From Camelus ferus (Eukaryota), in assembly GCF_009834535.1 (NCBI RefSeq), contig NC_045696.1:87112001-87176000 (forward strand): a stretch of DNA of 64,000 nucleotides. The letters are read 5' to 3'. The notes beneath the pieces were generated by a model. The model made no database searches. It was not told the origin of the DNA and saw only the letters and a program-made list of their open reading frames with translations. Below, piece after piece: positions 23,323 through 60,211 of this stretch (its first letter is position 1; each line of letters opens with the position of its first letter). Both the position numbers and the translations under genes were made by a program.

Positions 23323-23793
23323 TGTATTAGTCTAGATTCTCCGGAGAAAAAGATCAATTACATATATATACATACACATAACTTGCTATATATTATATAT
23401 AGGATTTATTATGAGGAATCAGCTCATGCAGTTAGGGAGGCTAAAATGTCCGAAGATCTGCATTTAACATGTGGAAGATTCAGGCAAGCTGATGGTATAG
23501 TTCCAGTCAGAATCTAAGTCCAAATGCAGATGACAGATGTCGCAGCCCTCAGACAATCAAGTAAGCAGAAAGAGTGAATTCTCTCTTACCCTCATTTTTG
23601 TCTTATTCAGGTCTTCAACAGACTGAATGAGGTACAGCCCTGTAATACTGCAGGGGGCAATCTGCTTTACTGTCTACAAATTCAAATGTTAATCTCATAC
23701 ATAAACACCCTCATAGACACACCTAGAATGTCTAACCAAATATCTGGGCACCTCATGGCCCAGTTAAGTTGGCACATAAAATTAACCACCACA
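23323..23793. mobile_element. MLT2 (ERVL) solo LTR
   Basis: 'tgtattagtctagattctccggagaaa'...'aaatatctgggcacctcatggcccagttaagttggcacataaaattaaccaccaca'. Confidence 0.85.
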
Positions 23794-24479
23794 CTCACGA
23801 TGTATATGCACATAAGAAATCCTGGTTTCAGGTACCACTGAAATGAGGCAGCCTACGAGTAGAAAAAGCTGTGTTAACTTTTAGACACCAAATTGGGCGC
23901 AACAGCATAGTCTTTCAAACTAAATATAATGCAGCTGGAGGAAAGAGAAATTGCCAACTTCTTTGGAAGAGAGGAATTAAATTTTAAAGAACCAAGAAGT
24001 TAGTGAGATATATTCAAGTTTCAGGCCAAACCATTGTTCAATTGTTGACACTCAATTTGTCAGAAAATTTGCATTTTGGACAGAGCTGTTTAACTTCCAT
24101 GTGATTCAACTGAGCGAATGCGAAGAGTTTAGTAAATTTAGAATGGACTTGAATTAAAACTTGAAGGAGAGTGTCAGAAGCTTGGAAGAATACCCCAGAG
24201 CCTATAATAGAACGATTTTTAAAAAGAAATGCTGCTGCACCGTTAACAGTCTTGGGGACACAGGGAAAATATTGCATGGAAAAATCTATATATCAATGAC
24301 TCCAAATTAAAGAGATTCAAAAATTCAGACACTGAATTTAAAGACACTTAGGAATACCTTAATTAGTTTATTCCTTTACAGTTTCCATTATGGATTATAA
24401 GAATGATTAATACATGTTTAAAAAATACATATCAAAACTTGGTCTTAGTTTAGTTTGGGAGGTTTTGTGTGCTTGTTTT

Positions 24480-25525
24480 TAGTTATAAATCTTTATTGCA
24501 GCTTCTCACAGCAGAACTGAGTTTGCAGCTCATCTTGGTTTCCTCAGAGTGGGGCCCCAGGGGTCAGGGCACAGGAAAGGAAACAAGCCACTGCCAGGGA
24601 GGGTGGCCACCCCTGGAGGAGACAAAACGTTCACAAATTCTCTTGTGCCACACTGCAGGGGACCAGGGTCTCTGGCCATGAGGTTCCTGAGGGAGAACAC
24701 GTGGCGTCGAGGGGAGGTGGGGGAGAGAGGGGAAACGGGCTGAACGCACCAGCTTCCACCACTTGAAGGTGATGGGCTCTGCGCACACGCTGGTGCGCAG
24801 TGCACCTCCCCACGCCCAACCGGATATCGCCGGTGCGCAGGGCACCTCCCCACGCCAAACCAGGTAGGCGTAGATAGAAGTTGTCCGCAAAGGCGCAGGG
24901 GGAGCCCAGCGGCTCCAGCAGCTCCGGCAGAGGCCAAACCTTCTCCAGACAGCAATGGCGCTTGATGATGGGCCTGAGAGCTCGGGCAGGTCTAAGTGCT
25001 TCCCCAGCACCAGCAGTTTGCCATGTTTGGGAAAAAGGCTTCGGCTTTGAGGGTCCGTCTGAAGCGCCCACGAACGTGAAAAGCTGCAGGATGCTGATGA
25101 TGTTCCGCTCTGTCAGGACCAGCTCTCGCTTCAGCACCTCTGGGTTCCGGTCGATGCAGCTCTCCGCCTATGAATCATGACAGAATTTCCATTGTTTTCT
25201 GCTTTTTTTTTTTTTTTTTTTTTTCCTTTCTTCTTCACTCCTTCGAAAAGTTCCTGCAGCAGTTAGTCAGGAGCAGCTGGAAGCCCTTCTTTGGCTGGGG
25301 AACTCGTGCTCCTGGCCCATAAACAGCCAGTTGGAGTAGCGTTTCACAAGGGCCTGCACCTGCTCGGCCTCGAGGAAATCCCGCAGAGCGTGGTGCGTCT
25401 CCAGCTCCCATTGCGGGGGTAACTGCTGTTCTCAGAGAGAATCTTGCCACCCAGCAACTCTTTCCTCTCCCAGCCTGTGACCAGGAGGCTCATTTCCAGG
25501 TTCCAAAGGAGTTGAGGTCAGTAAC
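24480..25525 (-). pseudogene. PADI4: Processed, 5'-truncated pseudogene of protein-arginine deiminase (PADI4-like): C-terminal ~260 codons plus 3' UTR
   Basis: Frameshifted translation gives LNSFG.LEMS, HALRDFLEAEQVQALVKRYSNWL, KGFQLLL, FEGVKKK, ESCIDRNPEVLKREL, KAEAFFPNM, LGKHL, CCLEKV, LLEPLG, GEVHC and ITFKWWKLV, collinear with the PAD4 C-terminus and intronless. 3' UTR 'ctcagttctgctgtgagaagctgcAATAAA' (signal at 24492-24497) is followed by a decayed A-rich tail. Confidence 0.9.
24788..24867. repeat. 40-bp tandem duplication covering the PAD active-site GEVHC codons
   Basis: cgctggtgcgcagtgcacctccccacgcccaaccggatat / cgccggtgcgcagggcacctccccacgccaaaccaggtag. Confidence 0.9.
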
Positions 25526-28500
25526 TTTCGTTTCTTTTTTCACAGTGGTGTCTAAAATAATGATATGTTACTTTTATAGTTACTAGCATCTTCAGTTTGA
25601 TGAAATACAGCAGTAATTCAGCAGGTCATAGGATCAAAATTTTCATTTGCTTTTTTCCCCCCCGAGGCTGCAGGAGATAAGATATTCTTTAGCAAAGTCA
25701 CAGATAGTTCCTGGGTTGATGAATAATATAATAATATAAGGATTTTAGCATGTTATTTTCTCCCTCTATGCTGTCTGTGTCTTTGGTGGCAGCCAATCCA
25801 CCCTGCAGTTACTAAATTTCTTCTGTCCTTTTCCCTATGGTAGGGAGTAGCCAACTAAAATCCTGAAGACTTCAAAGAGCACCTCCTTCTAGTAGATGCT
25901 CTGTATCAATTTAGTTACCTCTTTCATTAGCACATGTCTGACTGCCAGATTCTAATACTAAAACTAAATTTGTAGTGCATTCAGCCTGAATTAAGCCAAA
26001 TACTCAATCTCCAATTGTTCCTACTTCCTGAGAATCTCATGCTGGAAACCTGTACCCAGTTAGAAGTATTTGTATCAGTCAGAGATCTTGGTTGAATGTG
26101 TCAGAAATCAACTACAGTTAAGTGCACAAAATATAAACTTAGAAATATATTGCCTAGCCAACATGATGGTTCCGAGTGCCATTATTAACTGATTTCACAG
26201 TCCCAGACGGTATATCGAATGAGTACATCTTAGGTCAAATATCCATATTCTACATGTTGTCAAAAGAACAAAGAAATCTAGCATCTGAACCATGTGGCTT
26301 TGGCAGTAGAAAACAGAACAATTCCCCATAAAACTACACAATGATATATTATTTAAATGTGGAAATGTGTTTGAGATGCCACTCTGGAGGGAGGATTCGT
26401 TGTGTCTTCAAATTTACCTAAGGATTTTCTCAGGTATGTGTTAGGGATGAGGCAGGAGATAAAAGAGTTATTCCAGGCTGTGGGAACAAAGCACCAGGGT
26501 GCACACATGTCAGAATGGTAGTCTAGGATTCTAGTTTAAGATGACAACTACCAACATTCATTTCGTCTTCTGTAAAAAGTCCTGTTGAAGTGACAGAAAA
26601 AAAAAGTGGTACAAATTAATAAATACATGATTCTACCGGGATAGAAAAAGGAGAAACAGTGGGAGACCTTTTTTTTTTTTTTTTTAAATTTTGAGAGGCA
26701 GAAATCCCACTGACCAATGAAAGTGGAGAAAGAATGTGAGGGTATATTTGGTATGGAAAGCAAGATGTGTTGTGTGACAGAAATGCAGGCGATTGAACAA
26801 AAGACTGTATGGTGAACAGCAGAGCTAGATCTTTCACCCTTTCCACATTTTCAGGAAAATAGGTTGACTGGAAGCACCAGTGTTAGGCCCCAGGTTAAGA
26901 CCATAAAAGGGCATAAGTTGTCTGGGAAGGGCTTGGGCTCTGTGGAATTGGTTCCTCAGAGAAAAGGCCCACTTACTTGGCACTGAATGGTTTCATTTTC
27001 AAAATCACTGATCTACTAAGTTAGCTGCTTTCTTCATTAAATAGAATTCTCCATCATCTCTTCCATTTGGGGGAAACATCTCTTAAAGAAACAGAACTAC
27101 ACAGCTGGTGAAGAAACCCATGCTATCAATCCATATTAGTAAAATTTTATTTACAAATTCAGAACATACCCAAGGGGAATTTGAGAGCTATTGACTCAAA
27201 AGAGGAAAAAAAATTTATGGGAGTAAAAAAAGTTTTAATATTTTGATATTTGTGTATCTCTGGTCCTCACTGCCTTAGTAAAAGTGTGTGTTAAAGTGTT
27301 GTGTGTAAAGTATGTGATGTTTAAGCCTCCTTTGTTTAATAAAGAAAAGAGAGACACATCTTCCCCACTCTGTCCTCCTTAGGGTGTCTTCTTCAGAACA
27401 CAGGACTTTTTAATTTTACAAGGCAAGGTCCTGGGCCTTCTGATTCATGCAACTGTAAATGCAAACTTCCAAGGTTATAAGTTGGAAGGCCCTGGGATTG
27501 GAGGCAATCACAAGGTGTATTTTCTTGCCTTTCAAGGCACGAGAAAAGTTTTTATTTTTTTCTTTTACTTTTTTTGTATAAATTGCATGAAATTCTGTCC
27601 AGACCCTGTAACCATTCTTGTTTTACCTTACATGCGTGCAATTTGTTAATACTTAGCCAATTATGTAATTGTTCTCTGCCCCTTCTGTATTGGTAAGGAG
27701 GGGACTTTTGTTGACAGGACTATTTATTTTCTTGACAATGTATGTGTGAGATTGGCTCTAACCATTCAGACTGCTGTTTCTGGAAGCCGAACCTTCACCT
27801 CTCATCCATATCTAAAAATTTTTGTACTAAAATATAGGATGAGTATAGGGAGCCTTGCACTAAAACAAAAAACAAATGATGTAATTCAGAGTAGCATTTC
27901 AGCACATTGTGTGAAATAGTTGAGGCAGAGATGATTTCTACAAAGTTCCTCAAACCGTATGTAAACCTGAAATTATGCAATTTCTAGTCAATTCACTGTA
28001 TGTTCGCCTTTGTCTGTTTTACTGTTTCATGTGGCACACCATTATTAGCTATGAGAATTGAGAGTAGAAATGAGTTTGTTAATCTGATAGCTTGTTTTGA
28101 TCTGGCTTCCTTTTTTTCCCCAGTTGAAAATATATTCAAAGGCTCAAGTGGTGAATCATATTTGTGTCTGTAATATAGATTTAAATATGCTTAATTCTGC
28201 TCATCTGTCTGAAATGTTTTTTACATAATATTTAAATAATATTTAAGTTGTGATCTGTGTTTAGAAATCATGTGATTGCACCATTAGATTCTATTTTTAA
28301 CCTTCTATCTAGAACATAAAGTTCTACTGCAATTATTACATAGGGGCTACTTTCACTGTAATTCCAAATTGTCATGGGTCCATTGGGAAAGCTTAAGATG
28401 TGTGTAATGGTGATGTGAGTTTTATTGGGCTTCCTTCCTCAAGAAATAGCCATACTAATTATTTTCAGTGGAGTGTGTTTGCCAGTTGGATTATCCTGCG

Positions 28501-38148: not shown

Positions 38149-38604
38149 CTCTAGGTGGGTAGTTAAAGAAAATTTAATAGGAAAATATATGTGTACATAT
38201 ATATTTATACTATATATATATGCTTTATGTATACATACATTATATATATGCATATCTTATATATATATACACATACATATTTACTTAAATATGTTACTTA
38301 TAATAGAAGTAAGAAATAATTGATGGTATGCAGACTAATGACATATCTTCTTTGGTAATTTATAAATTGATTTGACTTGAATGACCTTGCCTTACCTTCT
38401 TTACTAAAGAATAGTATACTAAAATTCAGGTTTATCACATCATTAAAATCAGTAAACAGAATCAACTTTTATATTAACATGTATATTTTAATTGGTAATT
38501 CATAATTTCTTATTTTTATTTTCACAAATAACAAACCAAAGTCTCACCATACATAAGAAGTTGGGGCAGCTTCTATATTATTTAAGTACTTGAATTTACT
38601 GTTT

Positions 38605-41600
38605 ATTATTTTTTTAACATTTTTTATTGATTTATAATCATTTTACAATGTGTCAAATTCCAGTGTTCAGCACAATTTTTCAGTCATTCATGGACATATA
38701 CACACTCATTGTCACATTTTTTTTCTCTGTGAGTTATCATAACATTTTGTGTATATTTCCCTGTGCTATACAGTGTAATCTTGTTTATCTATTCTACAAT
38801 TTTGAAATCCCAGTCTATCCCTTCCCACCCTCCACCCCCCTGGTAACCACAAGTCTGTATTCTCTGTCTGTGAGTCTATTTCTGTCCTGTATTTACGCTT
38901 TGTTTTTGTTTGTTTGTTTGTTTTTGTTTTTGTTTTTTAGATTCCACATATCAGCGATCTCATATGGTATTTTTCTTTCTCTTTCTGGCTTACTTCACTT
39001 AGAATGACATTCTCCAGGAGCATCCATGTTGCTGCTAATGGCATTATGTTGTCGGTTTTTATGGCTGAGTAGTATTCCATTGTATAAATATACCACTTCT
39101 GCTTTATCCAGTCACCTGTTGATGGACATTTAGGCTGTTTCCATGTTTTGGCTATTGTAAATAGTGCTGCTATGAACATTGGGGTGCAGGTGTCATCCTG
39201 AAGTAGATTTCCTTCTGGATACAAGCCCAGGAGTGGGATTCCTGGGTCATAGGGTAAGTCTATTCCTAGTCTTTTGAGGAATCTCCACACTGTTTTCCAT
39301 AGTGGCTGCACCAAACTGCATTCCCACCAGCAGTGTAGGAGGGTTCCCCTTTCTCCACAGCCTCTCCAGCATTTGTCATTTGTGGATTTTTGAATGACGG
39401 CCATTCTGACTGGTGTGAGGTGATACCTCATTGTAGTTTTGATTTGCATTTCTCTGATAATTAGTGATATGGAGCATTTTTTCATGTGCTTTTTGATCAT
39501 TTGTATGTCTTCCTTGGAGAATTGCTTGTTTAGGTCTTCTGCCCATTTTTGGATTGGGTTGTTTATTTTTTTCTTATTGAGTCGTATGAGCTGCTTATAT
39601 ATTCTGGAGATCAAGCCTTTGTCGGTTTCACTTGCAAAAATTTTCTCCCATTCCGTAGGTTTTCTTCTTGTTTTATTTCTGGTTTCCTTTGCTGTGCAGA
39701 AGCTTGTAAGTTTCATTAGGTCCCATCTGTTTATTCTTGCTTTTATTTCTTCTAGGAGAAAATTTTTGAGATGTATGTCAGATAGTGTTTTGCCTATGTT
39801 TTCCTCTAGGAGGTTTATTGTATCTTGTCTTATGTTTAAGTCTTTAATCCATTTTGAGTTGATTTTTGTATATGGTGTAAGGGAGTGTTCTAGCTTCATT
39901 GTTTTACATGCTGCTGTCCAGTTTTCCCAACACCATTTGCTGAAGAGACTGTCTTTATTCCAATGTATATTCTTGCCTCCTTTGTCAAAGATGAGTTGGC
40001 CAAAAGTTTGTGGGTTCATTTCTGGGCTCTCTATTCTGTTCCATTGGTCTATATGTCTGTTTTGGTACCAATACCATGCTGTCTTGATGACCGTAGCTCT
40101 GTAGTATTTCTGAAGTCTGGGAGAGTTATTCCTCCAGCCTCTTTCTTTCTCTTCAGTAATGCTTTGGCAATTCTAGGTCTTTGATGGTTCCATATGAATT
40201 TTATTATGATTTTTTCTAGTTCTGTGAAATATGTCCTGGGTAATTGGATAGGGATTGCATTAAATCTGTAGATTGCCTTGGGCAGTGTGACCATTTTAAC
40301 AATATTGATTCTTCCAATCCAAGAGCATGGAATATCTTTCCATTTTTTAAAGTCTTCTTTAATTTCCTTCATCAATGGTTTATAGTTTTCTGTGTATAAT
40401 TCTTTCACCTCCTTGGTTAGACTTATTCCCAGATATTTTATTACTTTGGGTGCTATTTTAAAGGGGATTGTTTCTTTACTTTCTTCTTCTGTTGATTTAT
40501 CGTTAGTGTAAAGAAATGCAACTGATTTTTGAACGTTAATTTTGTAACCTGCTACCTTGCTGAATTCTTCAATCAGCTCTAGTAGCTTTTGTGTGGACCT
40601 TTTAGGGTTTTCTATATATAGTAACATGTCATCAGCATATAATGACACTTCTACCTCTTGTTTTCCAATTTGGATCCCTTTTATTTCTTTCTCTTGCCTG
40701 ACTGCTGTGGCTAGGACTTCCAGGACTATGTTGAATAGGAGTGGTGATAGTGGGCATCCTTGTCTTGTCCCAGATTTTAGTGGGAAGCTTTTGAGTTTTT
40801 CACCGTTGAGTACTATGCTGGCTGTAGGTTTGTCACATATAGCTTTTATTATGTTGAGATACGTTCCCTCTATACCCACTTTGGCGAGAGTTTTTCTCAT
40901 AAATGGGTGTTGAATTTTATCAAATGCTTTTTCTGCATCGGTTGAGATGATCATGTGGTTTTTGTCCTTTCTCTTGTTGATGTGATGTATTACACTGATT
41001 GATTTGCGTATGTTGAACCAGCCTTGTGTCCCTGGGATGAACCCCACTTGGTCATGATGTATAATCTTTTTTATGTGTTGGATTCTATTTGCTAAAATTT
41101 TGGTGAGGATTTTGGCGTCTATGTTCATCAGTGATATTGGCCTATAATTCTCTTTTTTTGTAGTGTTTTTGCCTGGTTTTGGTATCAGGGTGATGGTGGC
41201 TTCATAGAATGAGTTTGGGAGTATTCCCTCCTTTTCAATCGTCTGGAAGAGTTTGAGAAGGACTGGTATGAGTTCTTCTTTGTATGTTTGGTAGAATTCC
41301 CTGGTGAAGCCGTCCGGTCCTGGACTTTTATTTGTAGGGAGGTTTTTAATTGCTATTTCTATTTCCTTTCTAGGGATCGGATTGTTCAAGTGTTCAGATT
41401 CTTCTTGATTCAGTTTTGGTGGACAGTATGTTTCCAGAAACTCGTCCATCTCCTCTAGGTTATCCAGTTTGGTTCCATATAGTGTTTCATAATATTCTCG
41501 TATGATATTCTGTATTTCTATTTTGTTTGTTGTAATTTCTCCATTTTCCTTTCTTATTTTGCTAATTTGTGCTCTCTCTTTTTTCTTCTTTGTGAGTTTG

Positions 41601-41605
41601 GCCAG
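38605..41605 (-). mobile_element. Young 5'-truncated LINE-1 (RT domain, C-terminus, 3' UTR) with 13-bp TSD
   Basis: ORFs 40049-41449 (RT, YADD) and 38937-40019; TSD GAATTTACTGTTT at 38592-38604 and 41606-41618; TT/AAAA-type target site. Confidence 0.97.
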
Positions 41606-41749
41606 GAATTTACTGTTTTTTAAAAAAGCAAAATAAAGGTTTGTTCTGAAGTAGAGATATTAACATGGACCACATCGACAAAACATGCCTAAGGTATCTT
41701 GGCAAGTTGCTATTCCTGAGACTGGAATTAATGGACTGCTCAGAGTAAT

Positions 41750-52703: not shown

Positions 52704-53432
52704 TGTCTTATTAATGTGTTTTAATACATGCAGCTTGGACAGGGAAATTGGAAAGTACTTTCATGTTACTCCACTTGTCCAGTATTCTGCCTCACACATA
52801 CATACTCTACATAGATGGAGTGGTTTTCAGTATGCGTCTACATTCAGTATTCTGCATGAATTTCTTTTGTAAGAGGAAGCATTGAGAGATTAAACTAAAA
52901 TAATAGCCACATGACAAGGAACAAAAAGAAAGAAAGGAATAGGGGAATTAAAATAGCTCTTTTTAAGAATATGCCAATTTTTTTTTTACTGTAACCATAA
53001 ATTTTAATGTAGATGCTTGCATTTGACTAGTGCCAAGAAGTCCCATTACTCTAAGTCACCCCAAGCATATTCAGCACATCTTGCTCGAGGCTTTTTTTTT
53101 TTTTTTTTAACATTTTTTATTGATTTATAATCATTTTACAATGTTGTGTCAAATTCCAGTGTTCAGCACAATTTTTCAGTTATTCATGGACATATACACA
53201 CTCATTGTCACATTTTTTTTCTCTGTGAGTTATCATAACATTTTGTGTATATTTCCCTGTGCTATACAGTGTAATCTTGTTTATCTATTCTACAATTTTG
53301 AAATCCCAGTCTATCCCTTCCCACCCTCCACCCCCCTGGTAACCACAAGTCTGTATTCTCTGTCTGTGAGTCTATTTCTGTCCTGTATTTACGCTTTGTT
53401 TTTGTTTGTTTGTTTGTTTTTGTTTTTGTTTT

Positions 53433-56400
53433 TTAGATTCCACATATCAGCGATCTCATATGGTATTTTTCTTTCTCTTTCTGGCTTACTTCACTTAGAA
53501 TGACATTCTCCAGGAGCATCCATGTTGCTGCTAATGGCATTATGTTGTCGGTTTTTATGGCTGAGTAGTATTCCATTGTATAAATATACCACTTCTGCTT
53601 TATCCAGTCACCTGTTGATGGACATTTAGGCTGTTTCCATGTTTTGGCTATTGTAAATAGTGCTGCTATGAACATTGGGGTGCAGGTGTCATCCTGAAGT
53701 AGATTTCCTTCTGGATACAAGCCCAGGAGTGGGATTCCTGGGTCATAGGGTAAGTCTATTCCTAGTCTTTTGAGGAATCTCCACACTGTTTTCCATAGTG
53801 GCTGCACCAAACTGCATTCCCACCAGCAGTGTAGGAGGGTTCCCCTTTCTCCACAGCCTCTCCAGCATTTGTCATTTGTGGATTTTTGAATGACGGCCAT
53901 TCTGACTGGTGTGAGGTGATACCTCATTGTAGTTTTGATTTGCATTTCTCTGATAATTAGTGATATGGAGCATTTTTTCATGTGCTTTTTGATCATTTGT
54001 ATGTCTTCCTTGGAGAATTGCTTGTTTAGGTCTTCTGCCCATTTTTGGATTGGGTTGTTTATTTTTTTCTTATTGAGTCGTATGAGCTGCTTATATATTC
54101 TGGAGATCAAGCCTTTGTCGGTTTCACTTGCAAAAATTTTCTCCCATTCCGTAGGTTTTCTTCTTGTTTTATTTCTGGTTTCCTTTGCTGTGCAGAAGCT
54201 TGTAAGTTTCATTAGGTCCCATCTGTTTATTCTTGCTTTTATTTCTTCTAGGAGAAAATTTTTGAGATGTATGTCAGATAGTGTTTTGCCTATGTTTTCC
54301 TCTAGGAGGTTTATTGTATCTTGTCTTATGTTTAAGTCTTTAATCCATTTTGAGTTGATTTTTGTATATGGTGTAAGGGAGTGTTCTAGCTTCATTGTTT
54401 TACATGCTGCTGTCCAGTTTTCCCAACACCATTTGCTGAAGAGACTGTCTTTATTCCAATGTATATTCTTGCCTCCTTTGTCAAAGATGAGTTGACCAAA
54501 AGTTTGTGGGTTCATTTCTGGGCTCTCTATTCTGTTCCATTGGTCTATATGTCTGTTTTGGTACCAATACCATGCTGTCTTGATGACCGTAGCTCTGTAG
54601 TATTTCTGAAGTCTGGGAGAGTTATTCCTCCAGCCTCTTTCTTTCTCTTCAGTAATGCTTTGGCAATTCTAGGTCTTTGATGGTTCCATATGAATTTTAT
54701 TATGATTTTTTCTAGTTCTGTGAAATATGTCCTGGGTAATTGGATAGGGATTGCATTAAATCTGTAGATTGCCTTGGGCAGTGTGACCATTTTAACAATA
54801 TTGATTCTTCCAATCCAAGAGCATGGAATATCTTTCCATTTTTTAAAGTCTTCTTTAATTTCCTTCATCAATGGTTTATAGTTTTCTGTGTATAATTCTT
54901 TCACCTCCTTGGTTAGACTTATTCCCAGATATTTTATTACTTTGGGTGCTATTTTAAAGGGGATTGTTTCTTTACTTTCTTCTTCTGTTGATTTATCGTT
55001 AGTGTAAAGAAATGCAACTGATTTTTGAACGTTAATTTTGTAACCTGCTACCTTGCTGAATTCTTCAATCAGCTCTAGTAGCTTTTGTGTGGACCTTTTA
55101 GGGTTTTCTATATATAGTAACATGTCATCAGCATATAATGACACTTCTACCTCTTGTTTTCCAATTTGGATCCCTTTTATTTCTTTCTCTTGCCTGACTG
55201 CTGTGGCTAGGACTTCCAGGACTATGTTGAATAGGAGTGGTGATAGTGGGCATCCTTGTCTTGTCCCAGATTTTAGTGGGAAGCTTTTGAGTTTTTCACC
55301 GTTGAGTACTATGCTGGCTGTAGGTTTGTCACATATAGCTTTTATTATGTTGAGATACGTTCCCTCTATACCCACTTTGGCGAGAGTTTTTCTCATAAAT
55401 GGGTGTTGAATTTTATCAAATGCTTTTTCTGCATCGGTTGAGATGATCATGTGGTTTTTGTCCTTTCTCTTGTTGATGTGATGTATTACACTGATTGATT
55501 TGCGTATGTTGAACCAGCCTTGTGTCCCTGGGATGAACCCCACTTGGTCATGATGTATAATCTTTTTTATGTGTTGGATTCTATTTGCTAAAATTTTGGT
55601 GAGGATTTTGGCGTCTATGTTCATCAGTGATATTGGCCTATAATTCTCTTTTTTTGTAGTGTCTTTGCCTGGTTTTGGTATCAGGGTGATGGTGGCTTCA
55701 TAGAATGAGTTTGGGAGTATTCCCTCCTTTTCAATCGTCTGGAAGAGTTTGAGAAGGACTGGTATGAGTTCTTCTTTGTATGTTTGGTAGAATTCCCTGG
55801 TGAAGCCGTCCGGTCCTGGACTTTTATTTGTAGGGAGGTTTTTAATTGCTATTTCTATTTCCTTTCTAGGGATCGGATTGTTCAAGTGTTCAGATTCTTC
55901 TTGATTCAGTTTTGGTGGACAGTATGTTTCCAGAAACTCGTCCATCTCCTCTAGGTTATCCAGTTTGGTTCCATATAGTGTTTCATAATATTCTCGTATG
56001 ATATTCTGTATTTCTATTTTGTTTGTTGTAATTTCTCCATTTTCCTTTCTTATTTTGCTAATTTGTGCTCTCTCTTTTTTCTTCTTTGTGAGTTTGGCCA
56101 GAGGTTTGTCGATTTTATTTACTTTTTCAAAAAACCAGCTTTTGGTTTGGTTGATTTTTTCTATGGTCTTGTTAATCTCTATCGTATTTAATTCCTCTCT
56201 GATCTTTATTATTTCCTTCCTTCTGCTGCTTTTTGGGGCTTTTTGTTCTTCTTTTTCTGATTCATTCAGGTGGTGGGTTAAATTGTTTATTTGAGATTGT
56301 TCTTCTTTTTTGAGGAAGGCCTGTATCACTATAAACTTCCCTCTTAGCACTGCCTTTGCTGTGTCCCATAGGTTTTGAGTGGTTGTGCTTTCATTATCAT

Positions 56401-57226
56401 TTGTCTCAAGGTATTTTTTAATTTCAGCTTTGATTTCCTCATTGATCCATTGTTTTTTCAATAACATATTGTTTAATCTCCATGCTTTCCTTGTTTTCTC
56501 CTTTGTTTCTCTGTTGTTGATTTCCAGTTTCATGGCATTGTGGTCAGTAAAGATGCTTGAGATAATTTCTATCTTCTTAAAATTGTTGAGGTTTCTTTTG
56601 TGCCCAAGTACATGATCGATCCTGGAAAATGTTCCATGTGCACTTGAAAAGAATGTATATCCTATTTTTGGGGGGTGTAATGCTCTGAAAATATCCACCA
56701 AGTCTAGTTTTTCTATTGTAGTATTTAATTTCTCTGTTGCCTTGTTTATTTTCTGTCTGGAAGATCTGTCTAGTGATGTTAATGCAGTGTTAAAATCTCC
56801 AACTATGATTGTATTCCCATCAATATCCCCCTTTATCTCTGTTAGTAATTCTTGTATGTACTTAGGTGCTCCTATATTGGGTGCATATATATTAATGAGT
56901 GTAATATCCTCATCTTGTATCACTCCTTTAATCATTATAAAATGTCCTTCTTTATCTTTCTTTATGGCCTTTGTTTTAAAGTCTATTTTGTCTGAAATCA
57001 GTACTGCAACACCTGCTTTTTTGGCTTTTCCATTTGCATGGAATATCCTTTTCCATCCTTTCACTCTCAATCTATATGTGTCCTTCTCCCTAAAGTGGGT
57101 CTCTTGTATGCAGCATATTGAAGGTTCTTGCTTTATTATCCAGTCTGCCACTCTGTGTCTTTTGACTGGAGCATTTAGTCCATTAACATTTACAGTAATT
57201 AATGATAGATGTGTGTTTATTGCCAT
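53433..57226 (-). pseudogene. L1 ORF2 (APE endonuclease, RT, C-terminal domain), one frameshift near 54605
   Basis: 893-aa ORF (NVNGLN, GDFN, TDHN, YADD) leaves frame after LPDFR; C-terminal part continues in ORF 53433-54515. Confidence 0.95.
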
Positions 57227-57630
57227 TTTGAACTTATCTTTGCAGTTGAATTGGTGTATCTTCTTTGTTCCTTTCTTTTTCCTTTTGTGGTTTGGTAATT
57301 TTCCTTTGTATTATCATGGATTTTATTTAATTTTTTTGACTCCTTTGTGAGTTTTTGGCTTGTGGTTACCTTTTTTTGTAAATCTATCAACCCATTACTA
57401 TAACTGTTTTTATTAAACTGATAGTAACATGATCTCAAACCCATCCTACTGTTAAAAAAATTTAAAAAAGAAAGAAAATAATATTCTATATTTCCCTGCC
57501 TCCCTCTCCCACTCTCAGTGAATTGTATGTCTTCTTTTATAATTTCATGTTTACTTTATTTGTAATTCATGAGTTATCACCTTTCCAGTTGTGTGTTTCT
57601 CATTTCTGTAGCATCCTGCTGCTTTTCTAT

Positions 57631-58535
57631 TTAGAATAGCCCTTTCAATATTTCTTTTAGCATGGGTTTAGTGTTGCTAAACTCCTGCAGCTTTTTTTTT
57701 TTGTCTGTGAAACTCTTTATTTCTCCTTGTACCCTCAAGGATAGCCTTGCTGGATAAAGGATCCTAGGCTGCATCTTTTTTTCATTCAGGGCTTTGAATA
57801 TATCTTGCCACTCCCTTCTGGCCTGTAGTGTTTGTGTAGAGAAATCAGCTGAGAGCCTTATGGGGGGGTTCCCTTGTAACTTACTCTTTGCTTTTTCTCT
57901 TGCTGCCTTTAGAATCATTTCTTTATCCTTGACTCTGGCCATCTTGATTATGATATGTCTTGGTGTGGGTCTATTTGGGTTCTTCCTGTTTGGGACCCTC
58001 TGAGCTTCCTGTACTTGGATATCTGATTCCTTCTTTAAGTTTGGGAAGTTTTCAGTCATGATTTCTTCAAAAACCTTTTCAATCCCCTTTGATCTTTCTT
58101 TTCCTTCTGGGACCCCTATTATGCAAAGATTGGGACGCTTTATATTATCCCATAGGTCCCTTATGCTATTTTCATTATTTTTTATTTGCTTCTCTTGTAG
58201 TTCTTCTGAATGGGTGCTTTCTATTGCCCTGTTTTCTAGATCACTAATTCGTTCCTCTGCATTATCTAGTCGGCTTTGCACAGCTATTAGATCATTCCTC
58301 ATCTCTGTCAATGAGTTTACCCATTCTACTTGGCTCTTCTTTATAGCTTCAATTTCATTTTTGACATACTTTGTATCTCTAAACACACTTTTAATTCCTT
58401 CAGCAATTCGATCACTCCTTTTTTGAAATCTTGATCTAGTAGGCTATCGATGTCTATTTCATTGATCTTTCTTTCAGGGGATTTCTCTTGTTCTTTTAAT
58501 TGGGAAAGGTTTTTCTGCTTCTTCATCTTGCTCAT
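57631..58535 (-). pseudogene. L1 ORF1 (RNA-binding protein), frameshifted
   Basis: Split into ORFs 58341-58535 and 57631-58386 (LWDNIKRPNL, PRHIIIKM, RREW, YPARLS); locally out-of-frame patch 'KAKSKLQGNPP'. Confidence 0.93.
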
Positions 58536-59029
58536 ACCTCTTTGGCACTGTGGTTTATGGAGTATCAGTTGTTTATTTTGGTCCTTAAGGGTTTTATCTA
58601 TCTAATGCCTATTTAGGAATAGAACTTAGGAAAAAAAGAAAAATAAATAAGAGAGAGAAAGAATTTTAAAAGAAGGGAGAAAGAGGGTTTGAAAACAGTG
58701 TATAATGAATAATAGAAGAGTGAGTTGAAGCAGATTATTAATCGGGTTGAGATGTCCTTTTGAAAACCTTTACAAAAAAAAGGGGGGGGGGAGATGAATA
58801 GATGTATTTGAAACCTGTGTCTAATCAATAGCAGGACATCAAAACCCAAGAGAAATAGAAATGAATTAAGAAGTAAGAATTAAGAGAGTAATAGAAAATA
58901 GAACAGGTAAAAACAGATTTAAAAAAAAAGGGGGGGGGTTTGTCGGTGTTCTCCTGGAGTCTGTGTGCTTTCACTGTGAAGTCTTTCTGTCTTCGTCCTG
59001 TTTTGGAAGCTCAGCTTGCTGTTTTCAGA

Positions 59030-60211
59030 GGCCCTCCGTTGGCGCCCTCTTCTGTGCTGCTCCCAGCACCTGTCGGCAAGCAGATCGCGCCTCCTCCTAA
59101 CACTGGGTCAGGTGCAGCTCTCTGCTGTGGGCGGGCAGGTCGCTGCCCCTCCGGATGCCTCAGTCAGATGTTGCAGACTGGCCAGGTAGGAGGGCGGGTC
59201 GTGCCCCCTCCCAGCACCTCGGTCAGGGGCTGTGTTCCTGCCCGAAAGGCGGGGGGGCCGCTCTCCCTCTACCTGCGCCGCCGGTAGCTCCGCTCTCTGT
59301 GCGGCTGCGCGCTCCTCCCTGGTTGGCGCTCCGCAGGTTGGCTCGGGGAAGACCAAGGGACAGCCCTGTCCCTGCTCCGAGCCAAAACCCAGCTCCTTGT
59401 TTGTTTTTGTGGAGCAAGTTCTCTGAGGGACCAGGATGGAAGGATCCTATCTGCCCTGGGCTGCAGGCCAGTCTCAGTCTGGCCTTTGGGGCTGCTAAGC
59501 CCTTCGGTGCGGATGCAGGTTTCGCCCCCGCCCCCGCCTGAGTGCTCAGGGCGGAGGATATGGCGGCTGTGCCTGAGCCCCGCACCTCTTCCCCCGAAAA
59601 CTTTCCGCGGGTTTTCAGAGATGGGGGTGTGCACCCTTCCCCCGAGAGCACATCAACCTTGCTGTTTTATGGAGGGCCCAGGTTGTTCTGCCCTGTGCAC
59701 CCACAGCCAAGGCGCGCAGCCCCTTGCGTTCCCCTGGGGCTGCCTCCGTGCAGCCACTTCCGTCCTCCGCCCGGCTTGTGCAGCCTGGCCCTGCCCGCCA
59801 CTGCCGGCCCGCGTCTCAGGCTGGGTGTCGGGGGGATGCTCTGTGTCCGTTTAACTTAGTTCTGTTAGTCAAGGGCTGCTCTGTACAGATGCGAGCCTTG
59901 GAGGCTCCCCTTCCGTCCCGCTGGCCTCTCAGTTGGAGAGGGGAGACCCAGCGAGCGAGCGCCAGTCCTCCTTTGCCGCTCCCTCCCCGCGGGACCTGTC
60001 CCGCGCTGCTTTGCCTTTTGTTCTTTCTTTTTTCCTTTTCTCCTACCAGATTTTTGGCGTCTTTATCTTTTGAAGAGGGCGATGTTCTGTCGGAGTTCCA
60101 CAGGTGCTCTGGTTGGCTGAGTGGGTCTGTAGATGTGGGTCTTGGTGTATTTGTGGGAGAGGGTGACCCTACGAGCGTCCTTCTACTCCGCCATCTTCTC
60201 CGTCTCTCCCC
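59030..60211 (-). promoter_or_regulatory. L1 internal promoter, CpG island with 5'-terminal YY1 motif
   Basis: GC/CpG-rich; AAGATGGCGG at 60188-60197 (minus). Confidence 0.8.

Follow-up and report, generated by a model that had tools for sequence, protein, structure and literature searches.

Mammalian processed pseudogenes of the L1 type are intronless, 5'-truncated copies that lie on another chromosome than their parent gene, end at the poly(A) signal and decay neutrally. The camel locus described here shares each of these features and differs in its PADI parent, in the lack of a surviving target-site duplication and in a CpG content above, not below, that of the parent. Antisense exons made from retrocopies are also a known class, as described in sections of PMC7290577, PMC5408686 and PMC5010893; in the sections of PMC7290577 drawn on here, 256 human lncRNAs contain retrocopy sequence (180 of them on the opposite strand), and for 47 retrocopies a TSS on the opposite strand lies close to the 3' end. 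At the present locus the opposite strand is likewise spliced, we argue, into a non-coding RNA, and RNA cover begins near the 3' part of the copy. Unlike the human-specific antisense exons, this one is camelid, far older and followed by a putative 135-kb intron, with a putative start site and function. CpG islands have been linked to retrocopy promoters in part of PMC4772013, and the orphan CpG-island promoters treated there resemble our locus as CpG-rich patches far from genes that are tied to retrocopy transcription. Those islands lie beside the copy and drive sense expression, whereas here the coding body is itself the candidate island and transcription is antisense.

The copy derives from the C-terminal PAD domain (PF03068) of PADI4, and compared with the enzyme it lacks the N-terminal and middle domains, is frameshifted and has an altered catalytic motif. 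Mammals have five PADI paralogues, of which PADI4 is present in embryos of mouse and pig once they reach two cells, and the word 'pseudogene' occurs 0 times in the available portion of the text reporting this (PMC9174705). Padi4 is also found in naive ES cells according to an excerpt of PMC10542446. A search of the literature by title found no description of a PADI retrocopy; subscription journals, supplements and annotation tracks may list one.

The window analysed is the whole stretch of 64,000 nucleotides of Camelus ferus DNA, and positions refer to it unless a contig is named. Our preferred reading, which we hold to be reasonably probable, is that the window contains a dead PADI4 retrocopy inserted before crown artiodactyls, whose opposite strand now likely contributes an exon, and probably the first one, to a spliced non-coding RNA. 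Copies of this type are ordinary, and the later history of this one is moderately interesting. Its features are as follows.

24481..25529, minus strand: PADI4 processed pseudogene, 5'-truncated in exon 11 (about codon 397 of 666) and reaching to the poly(A) signal (genome DNA search and exon alignment)
25414..25529, minus strand: part of parent exon 11, with the junction at 25413 (alignment)
25286..25413, minus strand: equivalent of parent exon 12 (alignment)
25303..25317, minus strand: GHVDE changed to GQEHE, the motif's His and Asp lost (translation)
25162..25285, minus strand: parent exons 13-14 with deletions; A22 run from lysine codons at 25203-25224 (alignment)
25022..25161, minus strand: equivalent of parent exon 15 (alignment)
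24741..25021, minus strand: coding part of parent exon 16, with an altered stop codon (alignment)
24788..24867, no strand: tandem duplication of 40-bp units, 34/40 alike (sequence comparison)
24483..24740, minus strand: PADI4 3' UTR, with AATAAA at 24497-24492 (alignment and UTR scores)
24438..24482, minus strand: A-rich tract, possibly a decayed poly(A) tail (composition count)
24600..25420, no strand: core rich in CpG, with 41 CpG, O/E 0.60 and GC 0.58 (counts)
24758..25516, plus strand: RNA-contig cover up to a splice donor; putative exon of a spliced RNA, likely its first, running antisense to PADI4 (strand via GT-AG)
25517..25522, plus strand: splice donor of a putative 134,994-bp intron leading to an acceptor at C1:87272511, beyond the window (ends of RNA contigs)

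The GC content of 24501-25500 was 0.53-0.62 as compared to 0.32-0.37 in the neighbouring 500-base bins. The PAD C-terminal motifs GQEHE, KAEAFFPNM, LGKHL and FKWW were found on the minus strand spread across three frames, and the Pfam PAD model matched the copy at E 5.5e-7 in a profile search of the genome. Among the structure matches of a 50-aa open piece of the copy, PAD4 was best (E 1.6e-6), followed by PAD2 (2.6e-4), PAD1 (5.5e-4) and PAD3 (0.2). A preliminary description of this DNA had proposed a frameshifted minus-strand block from the PAD C-terminus with its homology scattered over several frames; GC bins, motifs and Pfam match all agree with it, and its coordinates were correct within a few bases. 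The stretch was present at a share of 0.99-1.00 in 14 of the 24 sequencing runs listed, and with 9 possible sources set aside 5 runs from 2 studies remained, so the copy is not an assembly artefact.

A DNA search of the genome with the copy returned 14 matches. One was the copy, 10 were exon pieces that cluster on contig C13, and 3 were short matches at the A-run. Profile search and tblastn resolved the C13 PADI cluster into five genes, one on the minus strand and four on the plus strand, and the parent is the fourth, with 16 coding exons by tblastn. Its last exon shares 99% identity with PADI4 of Vicugna pacos, and PAD4 is the closest of the solved structures. Copy and parent lie on separate contigs, C1 and C13. 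When aligned to spliced parent exons 11-16, the copy was identical at 753 of 964 aligned bases (78%) with 33 gaps. All 5 parent junctions were joined, the missing introns measuring 1043, 243, 833, 579 and 2013 bp; at four of them 9-15 of the 15 bases on each side matched, and at the fifth, which lies in the A-run, 8 and 7. Over shared coding columns the copy's identity was 0.78-0.79 to PADI4 as compared to 0.63-0.70 to PADI1/2/3/6, and its 3' UTR scored 187 against PADI4 and 26-36 against the four paralogues, while none of 50 shuffles scored above 40.5. Taken alone, the identity of the sequence as a PADI4 retrocopy is virtually certain. That the copy is a DNA-level duplication or stems from another PADI paralogue is a thought prompted by an intron-containing PADI3 fragment on contig C23 and by the exon 16 pieces of the copy, which also matched PADI3 and PADI2 in the DNA search. 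Its probability is negligible, as five introns are absent from the copy and both UTR and coding identity point to PADI4; we rejected it on the 5 joined junctions, the coding identity and the UTR match. The preliminary description had called the block an intronless retrocopy, named PADI4 as its source and noted a 3' UTR with AATAAA, and all three points stand: the splice alignment to the host PADI4 spans six exons and the UTR aligns to that of PADI4. Of the two refuting outcomes it named, another paralogue as best match or an alignment lying within one parent exon, neither applies.

The coding part of the copy carries 23 indels, of which 16 are frameshifting, and its divergence is flat over codon positions 1, 2 and 3 (0.21, 0.22 and 0.24; K2P 0.26). 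The catalytic residues of PAD enzymes are Asp, His, Asp and Cys. In the copy GHVDE has lost its His and Asp, the Cys codon survives out of frame and the upstream Asp was lost by truncation. With 23 coding indels and GHVDE read as GQEHE the copy is therefore dead as an enzyme, which is what the preliminary description had concluded from the motif, and it leaves knowledge of PAD enzymes unchanged.

A profile search for the PADI family gave 40 matches, and all but 5 lie in the cluster; the 5 are the copy on C1, one match on C2 and three on C23. The C2 match (C2:111,198,050-111,198,764, minus strand) is an intronless PADI6 piece comprising exons 14-16 and UTR, with 73-84% identity by exon. It sits inside an ERV-like element, just before the LTR, in place of a short internal stretch, and we take the element to be ERV-L/MLT2. 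The repeat match breaks off and restarts at the edges of the PADI6 piece, and the same gap measures about 130-290 bp in the two other copies checked; a repeat match interrupted by the PADI6 piece, with a short gap elsewhere, fits LTR-mediated capture. PADI6 is expressed in the oocyte, and the C2 copy is a candidate for LTR-mediated capture of oocyte mRNA. LTR-mediated retroposition is rare in mammals, with 3 human and 8 mouse cases given in the part of PMC5131818 used here. On C23 (C23:13,682,152-13,685,197, minus strand) lies an intron-containing PADI3-like fragment of about exons 10-13 with stops and frameshifts, which by its sequence is a DNA-level duplicate. The preliminary description knew of no described PADI retrocopy; this agrees with our literature search, but the copy is not unique, with a processed PADI6 copy in the same genome.

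Homology to the parent stops about 10 bases beyond AATAAA. The A-rich tract that follows holds 24 A in 45 bases, a value that 4.6% of the 45-mers in the window reach. No target-site duplication was found in the flanks, where the best alignment scored 20 and was equalled by 294 of 500 random pieces. Loss of the duplication is expected at such an age, so we infer the route from the way the copy is truncated 5' and stops at the poly(A) signal, which makes the L1 machinery likely. On C1 the copy lies between an SI-type match (85.8 Mb) and an NMD3 match (88.4 Mb), with a BCHE-type match at 85.2 Mb. The gene names SI, NMD3 and BCHE and the synteny to human 3q26.1 are our assumptions, as is a possible link to the human 3q26.1 lncRNA LINC01192/CT64. 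No host gene appeared among the ORFs listed over 464 kb, which is a list of long ORFs and not a gene annotation. An LTR-like repeat on the minus strand at about 23400-23810 lies some 670 bp beyond the 3' end of the copy and is not adjacent to it; it is presumably of the MLT2 type, matches the LTR next to the PADI6 copy on C2 at 76% and is probably unrelated.

To date the copy we used an alignment of 26 PADI4-named proteins out of 120 listed, with human and mouse absent. Artiodactyl-diagnostic sites (n=6) were those at which at least 8 of 9 artiodactyl rows differ from the state in at least half of 18 outgroups. The copy had the outgroup residue at 4 of these (N432, S434, F468 and E645), one was gapped and one (515) was misaligned. 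Site 515 lies beside the A-run, and direct translation (LFEGVKKK) gives the outgroup E, i.e. a fifth outgroup state. By our own arithmetic, using the substitution rates of the simulations described below, the odds of five chance reversions are about 3 in a million. The outgroup state at 4 of 6 sites, or 5 read directly, suggests that the copy likely predates crown Artiodactyla. At Laurasiatheria-type sites (n=9) the copy matched at 4, was gapped at 2, had neither state at 2 and showed the far state in a gapped spot at 1; with only 4 of 9 matching, the post-Laurasiatheria bound is weak. Insertion thus likely fell after the laurasiatherian split and before crown Artiodactyla, roughly 60-85 My ago, and the copy is likely older than 60 My. 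Its presence or absence is a ready marker for the deep branches of Laurasiatheria. The copy is also fossil evidence that an ancient mammal had PADI4 mRNA in its germline or early embryo. The preliminary description had drawn this same inference, which is sound and fits the embryo expression in the portion of PMC9174705 cited above, but it holds for any fixed retrocopy and concerns an ancestor that likely lived more than 60 My ago.

The copy contains 42 CpG (O/E 0.51) as compared to 31 (0.35) in the parent and an O/E of 0.13-0.15 in the 10-kb flanks. Its core at 24600-25420 (821 bp) has a GC of 0.58 and an O/E of 0.597, and the best 500-bp window reached 0.66. A CpG island has a GC above 0.5 and an O/E of at least 0.6 over at least 200 bp, or more strictly 0.55, 0.65 and 500 bp, and at 0.60 the core is borderline. 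Within 664 kb there were 10 GC-rich blocks; the O/E was at least 0.57 in 3 of them (the copy, the 5' UTR of the youngest L1 and an LTR-like repeat 79 kb upstream) and 0.08-0.40 in the other 7. Two old L1 5' UTRs nearby with similar non-CpG divergence (0.18) had 0.32-0.33, and the PADI6 copy on C2 had 0.33. That the copy is richer in CpG than both its parent and its flanks suggests a state that is unmethylated and promoter-like. The upstream LTR-like repeat, at C1:87,056,900-87,057,500, is old and multi-copy and has a CpG-rich core and a donor-like site on the plus strand, and we take its motifs to be YY1/NRF1/GC-box-like and promoter-like.

Among the aligned coding CpGs of the copy, 16 of 29 were absent from the parent and the paralogues. 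Of the parent's 27 CpGs the copy kept 8, and of the 10 confirmed by paralogues it kept 2, while 25 were new; with so few parent CpGs kept, it was not always protected. CpG evolution was simulated starting from the parent with assumed rates and no indels. In this setting 42 CpG were reached in 15-30 of 60 simulations without hypermutability, in 0-1 of 60 at 3x and in 0 of 60 at 6x or 10x. Models with no methylation kept 9 or fewer parent CpGs in 0 of 200 runs, and under two-phase models no more than 2-22 of 200 runs attained the 25 new CpGs. Constant-rate models were rejected, each failing on either kept or new CpGs. Weak-to-strong and strong-to-weak substitution rates in the copy were 0.171 and 0.168. 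The strand asymmetry of G>A (22/149) versus C>T (12/141) gave P = 0.10 and carries no weight. Each unit of the 40-bp duplication (24788..24867) contains a CCCACGCC motif that is absent in the parent and that we take to be KLF/SP-type. The best reading of the CpG pattern is early methylation followed by escape, perhaps together with GC-biased conversion.

RNA contigs of four runs were aligned to window 23900-26900. In X15 and X16, two RNA-seq runs of one study labelled reproductive system, cover ran from 24758 and 24869 respectively up to 25516, where the contigs of both runs share an identical 28-letter loose end. A plus-strand GT donor follows at 25517, 13 bases inside the copy's 5' edge. The loose end had no match in the window and one exact match in the genome, at C1:87272511 (plus strand), which is collinear and is immediately preceded by a pyrimidine tract and AG. 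X15 and X16 contigs at this acceptor bear the reciprocal loose end, so that the RNA ends correspond at canonical splice sites. The implied intron is 134,994 bp and the RNA would be antisense to PADI4, the strand being given by the splice motifs alone. Bridging of a junction has a threshold of 31 letters, probably the overlap length of such contigs, and the far side here has only 28-30 letters. The junction was found in 2 runs of 1 study at a depth of 3-9, from contigs that give neither strand nor start. Unspliced RNA cover extends into the intron and surrounds the far exon, and X17 has a single unspliced contig across the acceptor. This X17 contig (from a run only guessed to be RNA) has a depth of 65 over the far exon (local 827-1891) and ends at an A-rich tract with AATAAA, possibly a 3' end or internal priming. 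X20, of which a small share was used, gave one 190-nt contig within the copy and none at the far exon, and X24, sampled at 1 in 100 of the raw run, gave one partial read. Contigs of X15, X16 and X20 left 23900-24750 uncovered, and the point where cover starts varies (24758, 24869); a hole in contig cover proves nothing and we do not argue a start site from it. The longest ATG frame in the two joined exons (1159 nt) is 71 aa, and further exons are possible. Rfam gave 0 matches at the 2 loci. One X16 contig has G>A at 25713, likely an allele. With the donor end at 25516 joined to an acceptor 134,994 bp downstream the copy is a candidate antisense exon, and a spliced non-coding RNA likely includes its opposite strand, probably as first exon. 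This junction and the CpG excess, both absent from the preliminary description, are more informative than the points it made.

According to our preferred history, spliced PADI4 mRNA would have been reverse-transcribed in the germline or early embryo and the cDNA inserted in the AT-rich desert between SI and NMD3. The copy would at first have lost CpGs, as methylated DNA does, and would later, as a GC- and CpG-rich patch evading germline methylation, have come to start plus-strand transcription, the RNA exiting at the donor near the copy's 5' edge and splicing 135 kb downstream. If the promoter reading is true, this is a dated case in which a dead coding sequence within a gene desert turned into a CpG-rich promoter, and the parent supplies a built-in ancestral control. 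A long plus-strand transcript from elsewhere might instead splice from the donor in the copy, which would then be an internal or cryptic site, with the CpG excess arising by GC-biased gene conversion or local indel churn. The CpG-rich LTR-like block 79 kb upstream on the same contig, with its O/E of at least 0.57, could offer such a transcript a promoter, intron cover equals exon cover in depth, the majority of old CpGs were lost, and the equal rates of 0.171 and 0.168 in surroundings of 35% GC are also expected under biased conversion. We nevertheless consider this somewhat unlikely: no loose end precedes any contig within the copy, the X16 contig runs unbroken from the T-run through the junction, passing the best internal acceptor-like site near 25260, and 650-760 nt would be unusually long for an internal exon.

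Two further alternatives concern the RNA itself. We give little credence to a selected trans-regulator that pairs with PADI4 mRNA as duplex or endo-siRNA in reproductive tissue. The exon is 78% complementary to parent exons 11-16 and human trans-antisense candidates are described in part of PMC7290577, but the longest perfect run, 25 nt, was attained in 36% of 2000 shuffles, so that there is no excess complementarity, and identity is flat over exons (0.73-0.81) with 33 gaps. Our explanation requires no effect on PADI4. A wholly inert copy, the RNA signal being a chimera or DNA carry-over, is scarcely credible, since a chimera would need to land precisely on a GT and an AG that are collinear on the same strand and separated by 135 kb, and to do so identically in two runs; in its favour are the single study, the low depth, the far side under 31 letters, DNA possibly present in an RNA library, and the one partial read from X24. 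We also judge very improbable a much fuller version of the history, by which a Late-Cretaceous copy shared across artiodactyls had its coding body converted to a germline CpG-island promoter via new CpGs and duplicated KLF/SP-type sites, a conserved antisense lncRNA of reproductive tissue tunes PADI4 and histone citrullination in gametes or early embryos, and the copy together with the ERV-captured PADI6 copy shows two PADI mRNAs expressed in the embryo to have been captured by different retroposition routes.

Elsewhere in the window, a young near-full-length L1 occupies 53095-60210 on the minus strand; its 5' UTR (58950-60210) is CpG-rich, and its ORF2 is open over a stretch of 921 aa. A second L1 3' piece at 38602-41630 is 99.7% identical to it (3019/3029), and the pair would represent either two very recent insertions or a local duplication.
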